Position numbers and translations under genes: made by a program
Shown here: in pieces, positions 58,539 through 63,972 of the stretch
Layout: each line of letters opens with the position of its first letter
How positions within the stretch are numbered: the stretch's first letter is position 1
Origin: an uncultured Chloroflexia bacterium
Lineage (GTDB): Bacteria; Chloroflexota; Limnocylindria; Limnocylindrales; CSP1-4
Reading direction: 5' to 3'
DNA length: 64,000 nucleotides
Assembly: GCA_963763775.1 (NCBI GenBank)
Contig: CAVXPZ010000003.1
Coordinates: forward strand, 640,001-704,000
The notes under the pieces: generated by a model
What the model saw: only the letters and a program-made list of their open reading frames with translations
Told to the model about the DNA's origin: nothing
Database searches by the model: none

Positions 58539-59224
58539 CGCCACCTCCCGATCACGCGCCGCAGCCGGTCCGACGCACCCGCGGCGACCGGTTCCTCGAG
58601 GTCCGTTCCCGCGGCAGGTGCCGCCTCGAGGCTGCGCGCGTGGCGATCGACGGCCGGCCCGGCATCCCGTCGCTTCCGCCAGTCCGACTCGAGCACGCTC
58701 ATGGCCAGCTCGTCCCACCATCGGCCGTCGCGCCAGATCGACTCGCGCGCCCGTCCCTCGATGACGAAGCCGCAACGCTGGTAGGCGCGAACGGCCCGCA
58801 CGTTGAACTCGAAGACGAACAGCGCGATGCGGTGCAGCCCGAGCGTCCCGAAGGCGTGGTCGAGCATCAGCTGGGTCGCCTCGGTGCCGTAGCCGTGGCC
58901 CCACGCATCGGACTCCCCGATCGTGATGTGGAACAGGGCCGAGCCGTTCTCCGCGTCGAGCTGGCTGAAGGCGCACGTGCCGATCAGCCGGTCCGTCGCC
59001 TTGATGTGGACCGCCATGGCCAGTGCCTCGGTGCCGAGCACGCGGGAACGGAAGAACCGCTCGATCTCCTCCGGCCGCATCGGGGTCTCCTGGTAGCGCG
59101 CGAGGCGGGCGATCTCGCGGTCGGCGTACCAGCGTCGGAAGGCGGTCAGGTTCTCCGGCACGTGTCGTCGCAGGACGACCGTCGAACCGGCGATCGATGT
59201 CGGGAACCACGTCCGATCCGCCAT
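58535..59224 (-). CDS. GNAT acetyltransferase (RimJ/RimL-like)
   Basis: LIG, WGHGYGTEA, LHRI.L.V..FN.RA...Y.RCGF..EG..RE. Confidence 0.88.
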   Translation of the reverse strand: MADRTWFPTSIAGSTVVLRRHVPENLTAFRRWYADREIARLARYQETPMRPEEIERFFRSRVLGTEALAMAVHIKATDRLIGTCAFSQLDAENGSALFHITIGESDAWGHGYGTEATQLMLDHAFGTLGLHRIALFVFEFNVRAVRAYQRCGFVIEGRARESIWRDGRWWDELAMSVLESDWRKRRDAGPAVDRHARSLEAAPAAGTDLEEPVAAGASDRLRRVIGRWR

Positions 59225-59251
59225 GGGAGGGCACGGTATACCATCCCCGCC

Positions 59252-60964
59252 ATGCGCCGCTGGAGCGAGCTGGCGGAACGCCTTGCGGCCACCACCCGGA
59301 CGTCCGAGAAGACCGCGCTGCTCGCCGACTACCTCCGCAGCCTGACGCCCGACGAGCTGCCGATCGCGGCGGTCTTCCTCACGGGCCGCCCCTTCGCCGA
59401 GGCGGACCAGCGGTCAGCTGGCCTCGGCTGGTCCGCGATCGTCACGACCATCGCGGAGATCGCGGGTGTCGAGCGCTCCGCCCTCGGTGCCGCGTACGAC
59501 CGGCACTCGGACCTGGGCCTCGCGGTCGCCGACGTCCTGGAGGCGGCGGGCCACGATCCCGCCGACCCGCCGCCGACGCTCCCCGAGGTCGCCGCCACCT
59601 ACGCCGCCATCGAGACCGCGTCCGGCCCGTCCCGCAAGTCTGCGATCCTCCGTGACCTCCTGGTCCGGTCGGATCCCCTCACCGCGAAGTACGTCGTCAA
59701 GGTCCTCGCCGGCGAGCTGCGGATCGGCCTGCGCGAAGGGTTGCTCGAGGCCGCGATCGCCCAGGCCTTCGACCGCCCGCTCGATGCGGTCAAGTGGGCC
59801 GGGATGCTGGCTGGAGACATCGGCCGGCTCGCGTCGCTCGCGCGCGACGACCAGCTCGACCAGGCGACGATGACCCTCTTCCACCCGCTCAAGTCCATGC
59901 TGGCGTCGCCCGCCGAGGATGCGGACGAGATCATCCGGCGCCTTGGCCCGGAGGTCTGGGTCGAGGACAAGTACGACGGGATCCGGGCGCAGCTCCACAA
60001 GCAGGGCGCTGACGTCCGGCTCTTCTCCCGCGACCTCCACGACATCACCGGGCAGTTCCCGGAGGTGGCCGAGGCGGCTCGACCGCTCGCCTGGGACGGC
60101 ATCCTCGACGGCGAGATCCTGGCCTGGAAGGACGGCGGCGTCCTGCCGTTCGTGAGCCTCCAGGCGCGACTCGGTCGCAAGGACCCTACGGACGAGATCC
60201 GCGCCCAGGTCCCGGTCATCTACGTGGCGTTCGACGTCCTCGCCGTGGGGCCGGGCGACGGGGCCCCGGTCGACCCGCTGTTGCGGGAGCCGCTCACCGA
60301 GCGACGGCGCCGCCTCGATGTGCTCGACCTGCCCCTGGCCGCTGCCGGAGGCCGGTTCGCGCGTTCGAACCTGGTCGCCGCGGCCGATGCCGACGCCCTC
60401 GAGGCGGCCTTCTCGGCCGCCCGCGCGCGACGCAATGAAGGCCTCATGGTCAAGGACCCCACGAGCGGCTACTCCCCGGGCCGCCGAGGCCTCGGCTGGC
60501 TGAAGATGAAGAAGGCCCTCGCGACCATCGACTGCGTCGTCGTCGGCGTCGAGGTGGGCCACGGCAAGCGGCATGGCGTCCTGTCGGACTACACGTTCGC
60601 CGTCCGCGACACGGCCAACGACCGATTCGTCACGATCGGCAAGGCGTACAGCGGCCTGACCGACGCGGAGATCGCGGACATGACCCGCTGGTTCGAGGCG
60701 CACACGGTCGCGCAGTTCGGCCGGTACCGGCAGGTGGAGCCGACGGTCGTCGTGGAGATCGGCTTCGACGTGATCCTGCGGTCCAACCGCCACAAGTCGG
60801 GGTTCTCGCTGCGCTTCCCGCGCATCGTCAACCTCCGCCCCGACAAGACGCCCGACGAGATCGACACGATCGAGACGGTGACGGCCCTCTACGAGGGTCT
60901 CCAGGACGGCGCGGAGCACCTGGTGACCGCCGCGGCCCGCGCCGCGGATGCCGCTACCGACTAG
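59252..60964 (+). CDS. ATP-dependent DNA ligase (LigB-like)
   Basis: EDKYDGIR (KxDG), LDGE, FDVL, EGLMVK, WLK.K, SLRFPR..LR.DK. Confidence 0.93.
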   Translation: MRRWSELAERLAATTRTSEKTALLADYLRSLTPDELPIAAVFLTGRPFAEADQRSAGLGWSAIVTTIAEIAGVERSALGAAYDRHSDLGLAVADVLEAAGHDPADPPPTLPEVAATYAAIETASGPSRKSAILRDLLVRSDPLTAKYVVKVLAGELRIGLREGLLEAAIAQAFDRPLDAVKWAGMLAGDIGRLASLARDDQLDQATMTLFHPLKSMLASPAEDADEIIRRLGPEVWVEDKYDGIRAQLHKQGADVRLFSRDLHDITGQFPEVAEAARPLAWDGILDGEILAWKDGGVLPFVSLQARLGRKDPTDEIRAQVPVIYVAFDVLAVGPGDGAPVDPLLREPLTERRRRLDVLDLPLAAAGGRFARSNLVAAADADALEAAFSAARARRNEGLMVKDPTSGYSPGRRGLGWLKMKKALATIDCVVVGVEVGHGKRHGVLSDYTFAVRDTANDRFVTIGKAYSGLTDAEIADMTRWFEAHTVAQFGRYRQVEPTVVVEIGFDVILRSNRHKSGFSLRFPRIVNLRPDKTPDEIDTIETVTALYEGLQDGAEHLVTAAARAADAATD

Positions 60965-60967
60965 CGG

Positions 60968-61810
60968 TCAGCGCTCGACGGGCAGATCCAGGCGGTTCCC
61001 CCATTCGGCCCAGCCGCCGTCGTACACCGCGACGTCCTCGTGGCCGAGCAGCATCAGCACGTACGCGAGCTTCGCCGCGGCGACACCGGAGCCGTCGTAG
61101 CAGACCATCCGCCGACCACGGGTCACGTTCGCCGTGTGGAGGAGGTCGCGCAGCGGTCCTCCATCGCGGAGCTGCTGGCCCCCCGGCTGGCTCGTCGCCC
61201 CGACGGGGACGTTCACGGCGCCCGGGATGTGCCCGAGCCGTTTCGTGTTGCCCTCGAAGCCCTTGAACTCGGCCGCGGCCCGCGCGTCGAGGAGGGTGAC
61301 ATCCGGCGCCCCGAGGAGACCGCGGACGTCGCCGGTGGTCAGGCGCATCTGGTTCGGGGCACGCAGCGCGAGTGTCGTCGGCTCCGGGTGCACCTCGGCG
61401 TTCGAGATCGGGCGGCCCTCCTGGGCCCAGACCGGGAACCCGCCGTCGAGGACGCGGACCGATTCGAGGCCGTACGTCCGCAGGCTCCACCACGTTCGCG
61501 CGGCGAACAGGCTCTGGCTGTCGTCGTACACCACGACCGTGCTGCCGTCACCGATCCCGAGCCGCCGGGCGAGGGCCGCGACCCGGTCGGGGGAGGCGAG
61601 CAGCAGCACGTCGCCGCCGTCCCCCTCGTCGACGAGGTCCACCCGCCAGTCGACGTGGACGGCACCCGGGATGTGGCCCGCGGCATAGACCGATGGGGCG
61701 CTCCCGTCGGGGCGCCAGCGCGCGTCCACGACCCGGATGCCCGGGCGCCCGGACTGCTCGGCGAGCCATTCGGTCGTGGCCAGGTGTTCGGGTCGGGCCA
61801 GGCCGCTCAT
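60968..61810 (-). CDS. Tandem-domain rhodanese/sulfurtransferase (SseA-like)
   Basis: VDARW, Y..GHIPGA, VVVYDD, LDGG, GHIPGA, VYDGGWAEW; active-site loop reads VCYDGSGV. Confidence 0.88.
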   Translation of the reverse strand: MSGLARPEHLATTEWLAEQSGRPGIRVVDARWRPDGSAPSVYAAGHIPGAVHVDWRVDLVDEGDGGDVLLLASPDRVAALARRLGIGDGSTVVVYDDSQSLFAARTWWSLRTYGLESVRVLDGGFPVWAQEGRPISNAEVHPEPTTLALRAPNQMRLTTGDVRGLLGAPDVTLLDARAAAEFKGFEGNTKRLGHIPGAVNVPVGATSQPGGQQLRDGGPLRDLLHTANVTRGRRMVCYDGSGVAAAKLAYVLMLLGHEDVAVYDGGWAEWGNRLDLPVER

Positions 61811-61828
61811 CGTCGGTATCATACGGCC

Positions 61829-63061
61829 GTGGTCGTCCCCTTCTCGCCCGACGCCGAGCGCCTCGCCGCGGTCCGAGACGCGCTGCCCGCGCTCGGGGCC
61901 GGGATCTACCTGAACACGGGGTCGGTCGGCCCGCTGCCCGCCGAGACCGCCGCGGTGATGGCCGAGATGGCCGAGCACGAGCTGCGCGTCGGCCGCGGGC
62001 ACATGGACGGCTACCCGGAGTTGCTCCAGCGGCTCGCGGAGGCGAGGGCCTCGGTCGCCGCCGTCCTCACCACGGACCCCTCGGCGATCGCGCTGAGCCA
62101 CTCCACGACGGACGGCGTCAATGCCTTCGTCCTCGCGCTGGACCTGCGGGCGGGCGATCACATCGTCACGACTCGTCAGGAGCACCCGGGCATCCTCGGG
62201 CCGGTCGCGACCGCGAAGGCGCGCGGCGTCGAGGTCGCCTACGTGGACATCGGCGACGGCGGCGACGACCAACGGACGCTCGCGGCGATCGAGGCGGCGA
62301 TGACCGAGCGGACCAGGCTGGTCGCGGTGTCGCACGTGCTCTGGACGACCGGGGCGGTGCTCCCCATCGCGCGCATCGCCGAGATCGCCCACGACCATGG
62401 CGCGCGCATCGTGATCGACGGGGCACAGAGTGCCGGTGCCATCGCGATCGACCTCGACGCGACCGGGGCCGACGGCTACGCGATCCCCGCGCAGAAGTGG
62501 CTCCTGGGACCCGAAGGGATGGGGGCACTGGCCGTGCGCCCGTCGATCGTCGGGGACCTGACGCCCGCCCTCGGCGGCTACCTCAGCCTCGAGTCGTTCG
62601 ACCCAGCCGGCGCCGCCGTCTTCCAGCCGGATGCGCGCCGGTTCGAGTGGTCCGGCTGGCACCGCCCGTCCGTGGTGGGGATGGCCCGCTCGATCTCCTG
62701 GCTCTCGATGTTCGTCGGGCTCGACTGGGTCTATGCGCGCGGCGGGGCGATGGCCCGTGCCGCCGCCGACCGACTCGCGGCGATCCCGGGCGTGGAGGTC
62801 CTGACCCCCAGCCACCAGATGGCGACGCTGGTGACGTTCCGGATCGACGGCTGGACCCAGGGGGAGGCCATGGCCGAGCTCGGCGCGCGGGTGTTCGCGA
62901 TCATCCGGACCATCGATGCCCTCGAGGCGATCCGCATCAGCGTCGGCTTCTTCACGGGCGACGAGGAGCTCGACCGGTTCCTGGAGGCGGTGGAGCTGCT
63001 GGCCACGCATACGCCGGAGACGATCCCGCCACGCCGGACCCTCACGATCCTCCCGGGATGA
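61829..63061 (+). CDS. Class V PLP aminotransferase (EgtE/C-S lyase-like)
   Basis: YLNTGSVGP, STTDG, EHP, SHV.W.TG, DGAQS.G, QKWLLGP.G. Confidence 0.88.
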   Translation: MVVPFSPDAERLAAVRDALPALGAGIYLNTGSVGPLPAETAAVMAEMAEHELRVGRGHMDGYPELLQRLAEARASVAAVLTTDPSAIALSHSTTDGVNAFVLALDLRAGDHIVTTRQEHPGILGPVATAKARGVEVAYVDIGDGGDDQRTLAAIEAAMTERTRLVAVSHVLWTTGAVLPIARIAEIAHDHGARIVIDGAQSAGAIAIDLDATGADGYAIPAQKWLLGPEGMGALAVRPSIVGDLTPALGGYLSLESFDPAGAAVFQPDARRFEWSGWHRPSVVGMARSISWLSMFVGLDWVYARGGAMARAAADRLAAIPGVEVLTPSHQMATLVTFRIDGWTQGEAMAELGARVFAIIRTIDALEAIRISVGFFTGDEELDRFLEAVELLATHTPETIPPRRTLTILPG

Positions 63062-63450: not shown

Positions 63451-63592
63451 CGGCGCGCAACACATGGGACGTTCGGGCCACCCCGAAGGGTGGACCTCGT
63501 CCCTACAATCCCCTTCGGTATCGTTCCTCGGTATCATCGAGGACGCGAGCCGGAGCGCCGGTTCGCCCGGAACGAGCACAGAGGTCCACGCG

Positions 63593-63886
63593 TTGTCCAT
63601 CGACGAACAGCACGTCGCACTCCCGAAGCTCTACGGCGCGCCCGCCTATGCGCGGCCGACGGGGCATCGGGCGGAGGCGCCGCGACCCTTCGATCCGGAC
63701 GAGCTCCCGATCGAGGCGGCGATGACCGACGAGGACCGCGCGATCGCCGAGGAGCTGCTCGGTCGGGACGGCTCGAGTTCCGCCGACGACGGCCTGAACG
63801 GGCACGGGGTCGGTCTGCAGGGCCGGCCGTTCAGCATCCGTGGACTCGCCAGCCGGATCCTCAAGCAGGACGAGAGCCGGGTGTAG
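63593..63886 (+). CDS. Hypothetical protein
   Basis: TTG after GAGG; LSIDEQHVALPKLYGAPAYARP...FDPDELPIEA. Confidence 0.6.
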   Translation: MSIDEQHVALPKLYGAPAYARPTGHRAEAPRPFDPDELPIEAAMTDEDRAIAEELLGRDGSSSADDGLNGHGVGLQGRPFSIRGLASRILKQDESRV

Positions 63887-63895
63887 CATCCCCAC

Positions 63896-63972
63896 GGGGG
63901 AGTAGCTCAATCGGTCAGAGCGGCGGGCTTATATCCCGCTGGTTCCAGGTTCGAGTCCTGGCTCCCCTACCA
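63896..63972 (+). tRNA. tRNA-Ile (anticodon UAU)
   Basis: Cloverleaf: acceptor GGGGGAG/CTCCCCT, D-arm GCTC/GAGC, anticodon arm GCGGG-CTTATAT-CCCGC, T-arm CCAGG-TTCGAGT-CCTGG, discriminator A plus encoded CCA. Confidence 0.93.

Follow-up and report, generated by a model that had tools for sequence, protein, structure and literature searches.

We describe an isoleucine transfer RNA (tRNA) gene with the anticodon UAU (TAT in the DNA) that lies at positions 63896-63972, on the plus strand, of a 64,000-nucleotide stretch (hereafter, “the window”) of the genome of an uncultured Chloroflexia bacterium. We consider it about 85% probable that this tRNA-Ile(UAU) is functional and that, throughout the order to which the bacterium belongs, it replaces the TilS/lysidine system, which acts on a tRNA-Ile2 with the anticodon CAU, in the reading of AUA codons. 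The estimate is carried by the gene itself, its conservation among relatives, the absence of both tilS and a CAT-type tRNA-Ile2 from the genomes searched, the type of the resident isoleucyl-tRNA synthetase (IleRS), and the isoleucine-like behavior of AUA in alignments. TilS has been proposed as an antibacterial target. It is treated as essential, is reported from about 98% of bacteria, and has been called evolutionarily stable (PMC6063277, PMC12514573).

The source genome (G000) comprises 3.30 Mb in 4 contigs (C1 to C4), with 71% G+C and a completeness of 87%; the window is C3:640001-704000. It was compared with a class sample of 151 genomes, each at least 85% complete, from the source genome’s own family (f1, 50 genomes, 17 genera sampled), its sister family (f2, 7 genomes), and three other families (f3, 38; f4, 55; f5, 1), as well as with a phylum sample of 301 Chloroflexota genomes, each at least 90% complete. 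Together, f1 and f2 make up the order (57 genomes). Four genomes served as references: G024 from the same genus, G025 from the sister family, and G049 and G125 from TilS-bearing sister orders. The genomes of the relatives are metagenome-assembled, and the tallies include unpublished ones from sister families (G094, G114, G122, G131, G154) and from the phylum (G204, G321, G324, G405, G413). No conclusion is based on unpublished genomes alone, and a pattern match in G094 and a tRNA cluster in G413, both mentioned below, were not used. We infer that the order is Limnocylindrales, consisting of a CSP1-4-like family (f1) and Limnocylindraceae (f2). The class Limnocylindria has been split into P2-11E, QHBO01, CSP1-4, and Limnocylindraceae, the last two being sisters with genomes of 2.4-3.2 Mb at about 68% GC and of about 1.3 Mb at 63% GC, respectively; the main text of that study makes no mention of tRNA (PMC13212565). 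The sister-family genomes analyzed here are roughly 1.1 Mb.

The gene is 77 nt long, encodes its CCA end, and is recognized by ARAGORN, by Rfam (RF00005; 72.5 bits, with a gathering score of 29 and an E value of 6.3e-14), by direct reading, and by covariation. It is the window’s sole tRNA call by ARAGORN, as tRNA-Ile with anticodon tat, and both ARAGORN (gene position 35) and direct reading place the anticodon (U34 A35 U36) at 63930-63932 on the plus strand. Read directly, the acceptor stem is GGGGGAG/CTCCCCT with a G1.U72 pair and the discriminator A73, the D stem is GCTC/GAGC, the anticodon stem is GCGGG/CCCGC, and the T arm is CCAGG-TTCGAGT-CCTGG. The anticodon loop, CTTATAT, corresponds to C32 U33 U34 A35 U36 A37 U38, so that position 38 is the T at 63934 (plus strand). 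A previous sequence-only reading of the window had described a complete 77-nt tRNA with this anticodon, A73, and CCA, a description that was borne out by ARAGORN, Rfam, and direct reading.

The anticodon is conserved across the order. A DNA search of 40 relatives gave TAT in 30 of 30 loci: the source genome’s own, 19 from the same genus, and 10 from the sister family. Scanning the class sample with the pattern YTTATAN{13,17}GTTCRANNC returned matches in 50/50 genomes of f1, 6/7 of f2, 1/38 of f3, 0/55 of f4, and 0/1 of f5. The lone f3 match (G094) is not tRNA-like, and thus the 94 genomes of the other families are without a tRNA-like match. Within the order, 56 of the 57 genomes have a match, the one without being G029 (f2), and the anticodon is TAT in all 57 tRNA-like pattern rows; one f1 genome, G059, has two copies (C1:192875 and C2:2846).

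These counts bear on the possibility that a sequencing or assembly error conceals a true CAT anticodon, in which case the gene would be an ordinary tRNA-Ile2 awaiting lysidine. The assembly does contain frameshift-type errors: mnmA (TIGR00420; C1:671704-672773) is spread over three frames (226, 42, and 24 bits) in the source genome and is whole in relatives, which suggests either assembly indel errors or a pseudogene. Likewise, no DNA-run contig lies over position 63930. Against an error stand the 30 of 30 loci from independent genomes and the 56 of 57 order genomes with TAT, two RNA-library contigs from other studies that span 63890/63896-63972/63973 with zero differing letters, the failure to find TilS, which a CAT tRNA would require, and a tRNA body just 71-73% identical to the Ile2(CAT) tRNAs of the sister orders. 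The RNA-library contigs carry other flanks and therefore come from relatives; they do not prove transcription. As judged from these comparisons, conservation already refutes a miscall, which we regard as having practically no chance of being true, in agreement with the sequence-only reading, in which a C>T miscall was considered possible but less likely.

The tRNA also appears to be maintained as a structured RNA. Covariation was assessed on an alignment of 16 distinct sequences, drawn from 5 genera: the cloverleaf pairs in 99.4% of cells, and both-sided changes are found in 10 of 21 pairs, including all five anticodon-stem pairs; none of 500 shuffles reaches the observed values. The stems vary, and their changes follow the taxa, while loop positions 32-37 and A73 are invariant in 16/16 homologues. 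The tRNA-like rows of the order have T (23), C (33), or G (1) at position 38, a pyrimidine in 56 of the 57, and never A; A38 occurs in each CAT or GAT tRNA inspected and likewise in the UAU tRNAs found in two further TilS-less families of the phylum. The affinity of a tRNA for the ribosome is tuned by the 32-38 pair. A role for pyrimidine 38 in discriminating AUA from AUG is our hypothesis for this tRNA.

tilS was not found in the source genome using TIGR02432 and PF01171, the same searches being positive in 14/14 control genomes. PF01171 was over the cut-off in 0 of 41 genomes (the source genome, 24 of the same genus, and 16 of the sister family), and TilS (TIGR02432) was over the cut-off in 0/50 genomes of f1 and 0/7 of f2, many of them 90-97% complete. 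In f3, f4, and f5 combined, by comparison, TilS was over the cut-off in 89 of 94 genomes (107-178 bits), with the gene split in two in one more. In the phylum sample, it was over the cut-off in 275 genomes, and the 26 without it were 17 from f1, 3 from f2, and 6 others. Weak PP-loop matches (19-25 bits, in open reading frames [ORFs] of roughly 540 aa) were considered as TilS candidates and rejected, the one that was checked being GMP synthase.

The location from which the gene would have been lost can be recognized. Downstream of the elongator tRNA-Met, G049 and G125 have tilS (PF01171, 159.9 bits), then ftsH, and then a DnaB-like gene. In G024, of the same genus as the source genome, and in G025, of the sister family, ftsH comes directly after tRNA-Met with no tilS between them. 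The corresponding gap in the source genome (C1:716003-718123) holds an MFS transporter, an ion-channel gene, and two family-less ORFs, and no tilS; among the genomes compared, the source genome alone has this MFS/ion-channel insert. Because the source genome is incomplete and error-bearing, the case for tilS loss rests on the relatives and on synteny. The sequence-only reading had suggested that the lineage may have lost tilS, and the 0/57 count together with the slot without tilS extends that suggestion to the whole order.

The substrate of TilS is also missing. ARAGORN called 52 tRNA genes in the source genome, including one GAT-Ile in the rRNA operon, one TAT-Ile, and two with the anticodon CAT. 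One of the two (C3:820336-820410) is initiator-like, with bases 1 and 72 mismatched and an anticodon stem closed by three G-C pairs, and the other (C1:718235-718309, minus strand) is of the elongator type, with the acceptor GGCGGAG/CTCCGCT. In a normal bacterium, a third CAT gene encodes tRNA-Ile2; no third CAT gene was found in the source assembly. The pattern YTCATAN{13,17}GTTCRANNC matched twice each in G000, G024, and G025 and three times each in G049 and G125. The matches fall into three kinds: the initiator; the elongator tRNA-Met (acceptor GGCGGAG, GGCAGGG, or GGCTGGG), which is present everywhere; and a kind with the acceptor GGGCCCA, GGGCCCG, or CGGCCCG, which, among the matches listed, occurs in TilS-bearing genomes only. 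The C4-G69 and C5-G68 pairs of the GGGCCC-type tRNA match what we take to be the determinants recognized by E. coli TilS. At least three CAT-pattern matches were found in 48/55 genomes of f4, 22/38 of f3 (the rows of these two families were not classified singly), 9/50 of f1, and 0/7 of f2. Of the nine f1 extras, seven are not tRNA-like by eye, one is a duplicated initiator, and one is not called as a tRNA by ARAGORN; the third kind was therefore not found by the pattern scan in the 57 genomes of the order. Since neither tilS nor a CAT-type tRNA-Ile2 was found, the UAU tRNA is the only candidate reader of AUA.

Two side observations concern the methionine tRNAs. The f1 genomes have one elongator tRNA-Met each, of three body types (GGCGGAG; GGCAGGG/GGCTGGG...T; GGCTGGG...C) that alternate even inside one genus (loci L047, L053, L136, L137, L138, L140, and L141). 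The 1:72 mismatch of the initiator tRNA is kept, with base 1 being G in G000 and G049, C in G024 and G125, and A in G025.

A redundant role for the UAU tRNA, with tilS and tRNA-Ile2(CAT) sitting in the unassembled 13% of the source genome, would be compatible with its completeness of 87%. Some bacteria are known to combine TilS with a TAT tRNA (PMC3575796), as do two genomes of the phylum sample, G181 and G274; in G181, the TAT tRNA is GAT-derived. However, TilS is over the cut-off in none of the 57 order genomes, many of which are 90-97% complete, the slot between tRNA-Met and ftsH is without tilS in G024, G025, and G000, and a third CAT tRNA was not found among the 57 genomes. We therefore give redundancy a slight chance. 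The relatives carry TAT rather than CAT at this locus, and neither the assembly nor the other 56 genomes of the order show the combination of tilS and Ile2(CAT) that the sequence-only reading had named as reducing the tRNA to a redundant one.

The synthetase is of a type that could charge such a tRNA. The IleRS of the source genome (L062:745-4296, at about 393.4-396.9 kb of C1; 1183 aa as listed) has tRNA-synt_1, Anticodon_1, and a C-terminal DUF5915 domain in Pfam, the last (PF19302) with 101.2 bits over residues 996-1153; no zinc-finger IleRS domain is listed. This type-2 layout, with DUF5915 and no zinc finger, was found in all four IleRS sequences scanned (source genome, sister family, and two sister orders), which also share MupA/MupB-like similarity over their full length. 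The solved structures nearest to the source enzyme are the type-2 entries 8c8u-8c9d and 8wnd. By these domain assignments, the type-2 IleRS is class-wide, being also found in the TilS-bearing sister orders, and it predates the loss of TilS. About half of bacteria have a type-2 IleRS; its pocket for base 34, in the domain ARD3, consists of Q961, R964, K965, and L969 in the P. megaterium IleRS2, and A35 and U36 are bases that the enzyme reads (PMC13752280). Aligned to 8c8u-8c9d, the source enzyme has Q, R, K, and L at the pocket positions. The residues are Q, R, K/R, and L/V/M in 37 loci at least 54% identical to its C-terminal piece, and Q or N, R, K, and L in the two sister-order enzymes. The comparison of anticodon-binding residues, which the sequence-only reading had proposed as a check on adaptation of the enzyme, thus gave conservation: no order-specific switch was seen in the four pocket residues between the 37 relatives and the two sister-order enzymes. 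Separately, the order’s IleRS typically has EGD where others have EG followed by a hydrophobic residue.

AUA is almost unused in the source genome. In a crude set of 1901 ORFs with high GC3 (G+C at third codon positions; about 663,000 codons), there are 83 ATA codons (0.125 per 1000), compared to 50 ATT (0.075), 31,561 ATC (47.6), and 11,191 ATG (16.9). The 83 ATA codons are spread over 67 ORFs with an ordinary GC of 0.66-0.76. In the sister-family genome G025, the frequencies per 1000 codons are 16.7 for ATT, 0.36 for ATA, 5.0 for GTA, and 3.2 for CTA; AUA is specifically avoided, at about ten times below GTA and CTA.

To assign a meaning to AUA, ORFs from 384 kb of G025 (64% GC) were aligned to those of the source genome, giving 160 pairs and 58,752 aligned codons. 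Pairs were retained by coding-like GC per codon position, which excludes antisense shadow ORFs; an AUA-to-Val signal in the unfiltered alignment was spurious and came from such shadow ORFs. Opposite the 21 ATA sites of G025 (0.36 per 1000), the source genome has I in 8 cases, L in 6, V in 3, and M, N, A, and P in one each, and the isoleucine profile fits best, with log10 likelihoods of -18.15 for Ile, -21.59 for Leu, -22.73 for Val, and -24.23 for Met. The alignments thus show AUA behaving as an isoleucine codon in the sister family. This result applies to the sister family rather than to the source genome, because the five AUA sites of the latter are uninformative.

The same alignments address the possibility that the tRNA reads AUA with an amino acid other than isoleucine (e.g., AUA as Met) or acts mainly outside translation. 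Its acceptor stem differs from that of the elongator tRNA-Met of the same genome at pair 3:70 only and shares G1.U72 and A73, and the tRNA is strictly conserved even though AUA is almost unused in the source genome. On the other hand, the AUA sites of the sister family fit isoleucine about 10^6-fold better than methionine, MetRS relies on C34 in the anticodon CAU (PMC12514573), and A35 and U36 of this tRNA are the bases read by IleRS2 (PMC13752280). We judge a non-isoleucine or non-translational role to be improbable, at long odds.

A further possibility is a recent arrival of the tRNA on a mobile element or phage, where it would supplement the decoding of AT-rich foreign genes. A tRNA(TAT) does occur in one tRNA cluster elsewhere in the phylum sample (G413, unpublished), and G059 has two copies of the gene. 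But the tRNA is one gene, conserved by vertical descent across the 17 sampled genera of the family, with flanks conserved inside the genus and stem changes that follow the taxa, and the 67 ORFs containing AUA are of ordinary GC rather than AT-rich. A recent mobile origin is accordingly very improbable. The tRNAs closest to tRNA-Ile(UAU) (Trp, elongator Met, Thr, and Ile2-like) are only 70-75% identical to it, the Ile2(CAT) tRNAs of the sister orders reaching 71-73%, and for that reason no donor can be named.

Several points weigh against replacement of the lysidine system by the UAU tRNA. The absence of tilS from the source genome alone is weak evidence, given that the genome is 87% complete and has frameshift errors. 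The best two DNA runs (as Logan contigs) cover just 63700-63774, and none lies over the tRNA. AUA is so rare that a selective reason for the strict conservation of the tRNA is not obvious, and the AUA sites of the source genome in the alignments number just five (a gap, E, T, V, and L). The type-2 IleRS coexists with TilS in the sister orders, so that it permits the loss and does not explain it. Lastly, the sequence-only reading had suggested that AUG misreading is avoided by another U34 modification or by adaptations of the ribosome or IleRS, and no sign of any of these was found: MnmE and MnmG were not detected, and the 16S motifs, the S12 loops, and the ARD3 residues are all unchanged.

The details of this last point are as follows. 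The 16S 530 loop, both strands of h44, and the h34 motif are identical in G000, in G024, and in the TilS-bearing G049 and G125, and a partial 16S from G025 has an identical 530 loop. In five sequences of ribosomal protein S12, the loops PKKPNSALRK and GGRV.DLP are alike in the order and the sister orders, and flanking residues alone differ; just before PKKPNSALRK, the three order genomes have V-R-T-M-T and the two from the sister orders have V-M-T-R-T. As for modification of the wobble base, none of the 5 genomes searched (three of the order and two of the sister orders) had MnmE or MnmG over the cut-off, and 4 of the 5 had MnmA over it, with the copy of the source genome split over three frames. 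Since MnmE and MnmG were not found, the known route cannot make xm5U in these genomes. Two bacterial UAU tRNAs have been studied at the bench: in Mycoplasma mobile, tRNA-Ile2(UAU) has an unmodified U34 and much prefers AUA over AUG (PMC3575796), and in Bacillus subtilis, U34 of a suppressor tRNA(UAU) is likewise unmodified, and the tRNA reads AUG far less well than AUA (PMC3919564). Anticodon-loop context, e.g., at position 32, alters reading by unmodified U34 (PMC3919564).

For the history of the system, the charging of the tRNA, the state of U34, and the means of fidelity, we propose the following. The common ancestor of the order would have lost both tilS and the CAT tRNA-Ile2, which the sister orders kept, and AUA would since have been read directly by U34. 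Isoleucine would most likely be attached by the resident type-2 (eukaryote/archaea-like) IleRS, which may read base 34 through its C-terminal ARD3/DUF5915 domain. Given that MnmE and MnmG were not found, U34 most likely carries no modification, or at any rate no xm5 group; such a U34 would match the two bench-studied tRNAs, which bind AUA strongly and AUG weakly. Misreading of AUG is probably limited by this intrinsic preference for AUA, by competition from tRNA-Met, and possibly by the remodelled loop with its pyrimidine 38. A stricter version, which we put forward as tentative and rather unlikely, is that accurate AUA reading may be intrinsic to the tRNA, with the decoding center and the IleRS2 wobble pocket unaltered, through either a re-tuned loop and acceptor or modification of U34 by a new enzyme; the re-tuned form may consist of C32, a pyrimidine (never A) at 38, and the remodelled acceptor stem. 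If true, this solution would differ from lysidine, from agmatidine, from the synthetase/ribosome co-adaptation of M. mobile, and from eukaryotic pseudouridine.

Among known systems, the closest are those of Bifidobacterium and Neorickettsia, which have no tilS, a TAT tRNA, and a eukaryote-type IleRS (PMC3575796). As argued there by Taniguchi et al. (2013), a type-2 IleRS may accept UAU since the eukaryotic IleRS does; the natural TilS-less exceptions known at the time were nine species in three clades (PMC3575796). The order resembles these two in that tilS was not found and in having a single tRNA-Ile(TAT) and a type-2 IleRS with DUF5915/ARD3 in place of the zinc-binding domain. Unlike them, it belongs to the Chloroflexota, is free-living and uncultured, shows the trait at the level of an order, and is very GC-rich with almost no AUA. 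Its tRNA is also remodelled, with a GGGGG acceptor and pyrimidine 38, in a comparison that takes the Bifidobacterium and Neorickettsia tRNAs from the paper’s description rather than from their sequences. On these sequence features, the order’s system is of the TilS-independent kind of Taniguchi et al. (2013), in the Bifidobacterium/Neorickettsia subtype. The canonical TilS/tRNA-Ile2(CAU) system performs the same task, AUA as isoleucine, and is present in the sister orders, with tilS beside tRNA-Met; neither of its two parts was found in the order.

M. mobile, to which the sequence-only reading had compared the tRNA, is an apt parallel for the tRNA and not for the synthetase. It too has a natural bacterial UAU tRNA as the sole AUA reader without TilS, with U34 unmodified, as is likely here. 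Its IleRS, however, is of type 1, with Arg865 (Trp to Arg) in a zinc-binding domain that is absent from the order’s enzyme; the M. mobile subtype is ruled out since the order’s IleRS is type 2 without that domain. M. mobile is moreover a reduced parasite, rich in A+T, in which codons ending in A are frequent; the source genome, by comparison, has 71% GC and 3.3 Mb. A contribution of the ribosome has been shown for M. mobile (PMC3575796), while the order’s core 16S and S12 motifs, known from sequence alone, are unchanged. The B. subtilis suppressor of a tilS deletion, tRNA1-Ile(UAU), demonstrates that unmodified U34 prefers AUA and that a bacterium can live without TilS (PMC3919564), but it arose in the laboratory by mutation of the major GAT tRNA, whereas the order’s tRNA is a distinct, anciently fixed gene. 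In the eukaryotic cytoplasm, tRNA-Ile(UAU) carries U34 and U36 as pseudouridine. The likeness to that system lies in a UAU-type anticodon read by a type-2 IleRS, the argument made in PMC3575796.

TilS is also missing elsewhere in the Chloroflexota. In the phylum sample, the TilS-less genomes outside the order are G243 and G267 (f35), G356 (f56), G205, G374, and G389. In the first three, the tRNA-Ile(tat) has the body of an Ile2-type tRNA: its acceptor is GGGCCCG or CGGCCCG and position 38 is A, as if C34 had simply become T. No tRNA-like TAT-pattern match was found in G205, G374, and G389. A DUF5915 domain was present in 5 of the 5 TilS-less outsiders searched (all but G205). From these comparisons, we conclude that TilS has probably been lost at least three times in the phylum, each time with a type-2 IleRS, and the tRNA of the window’s order appears to be the most remodelled of the cases. 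Loss of TilS thus looks recurrent on an IleRS2 background. The cases form a natural gradation, which begins with an Ile2 body in which C34 alone has become U and ends with a tRNA that is remodelled throughout, and they offer material on how U34 reads A and not G; if the tRNA-intrinsic reading is true, the families with an Ile2 body and A38 would be natural earlier stages of the transition.

What is new here is an order-wide, free-living, very GC-rich case of TilS independence with a remodelled tRNA: a whole order of abundant soil and freshwater bacteria without TilS, with a conserved UAU tRNA and a clean synteny scar. In the literature on Limnocylindria or Chloroflexota and tilS or lysidine, we found no report of the loss, the species list of PMC3575796 (Table S1) being outside the scope of that search. 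For annotation, a missing tilS in metagenome-assembled genomes of this order should not count as incompleteness.

Upstream of the tRNA, the window holds an ATP-dependent DNA ligase (58640-60964, plus strand), rhodanese domains at the end of a minus-strand ORF (about 60997-61330), and, just upstream of the tRNA, a class-V aminotransferase that is cysteine-desulfurase-like (about 61937-62977, plus strand). The true starts of the two long ORFs in 58640-63061 are uncertain because these ORFs, on opposite strands, overlap each other. Between the aminotransferase and the tRNA lies a conserved 140-aa ORF (63464-63886, plus strand; from the ORF list and tblastn), for which a Pfam search gave no family. 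Its stop sits 9 nt upstream of tRNA-Ile(UAU), and from this spacing co-transcription of the two is possible. The order of the flank, class-V aminotransferase, 140-aa ORF, and tRNA, is conserved inside the genus: tblastn placed homologues of the ORF upstream of the tRNA at 17 same-genus loci and at 0 of 10 sister-family loci. The aminotransferase, the rhodanese, and the 140-aa ORF adjoin the tRNA within the genus only, the sister family being without them, and because of this restricted adjacency we claim no functional link for these genes.

Some other features of the ARAGORN output for the source genome may be recorded. A tmRNA gene was not found in its 4 contigs. Several calls are odd or over-long: a Pro(cgg) of 98 nt at C1:1044374, an Ala(ggc) of 94 nt at C1:1486035, a Trp of 95 nt at C3:156857, a Gly(acc) of 95 nt at C4:570851, and a tRNA with a 4-base anticodon at C4:420802.

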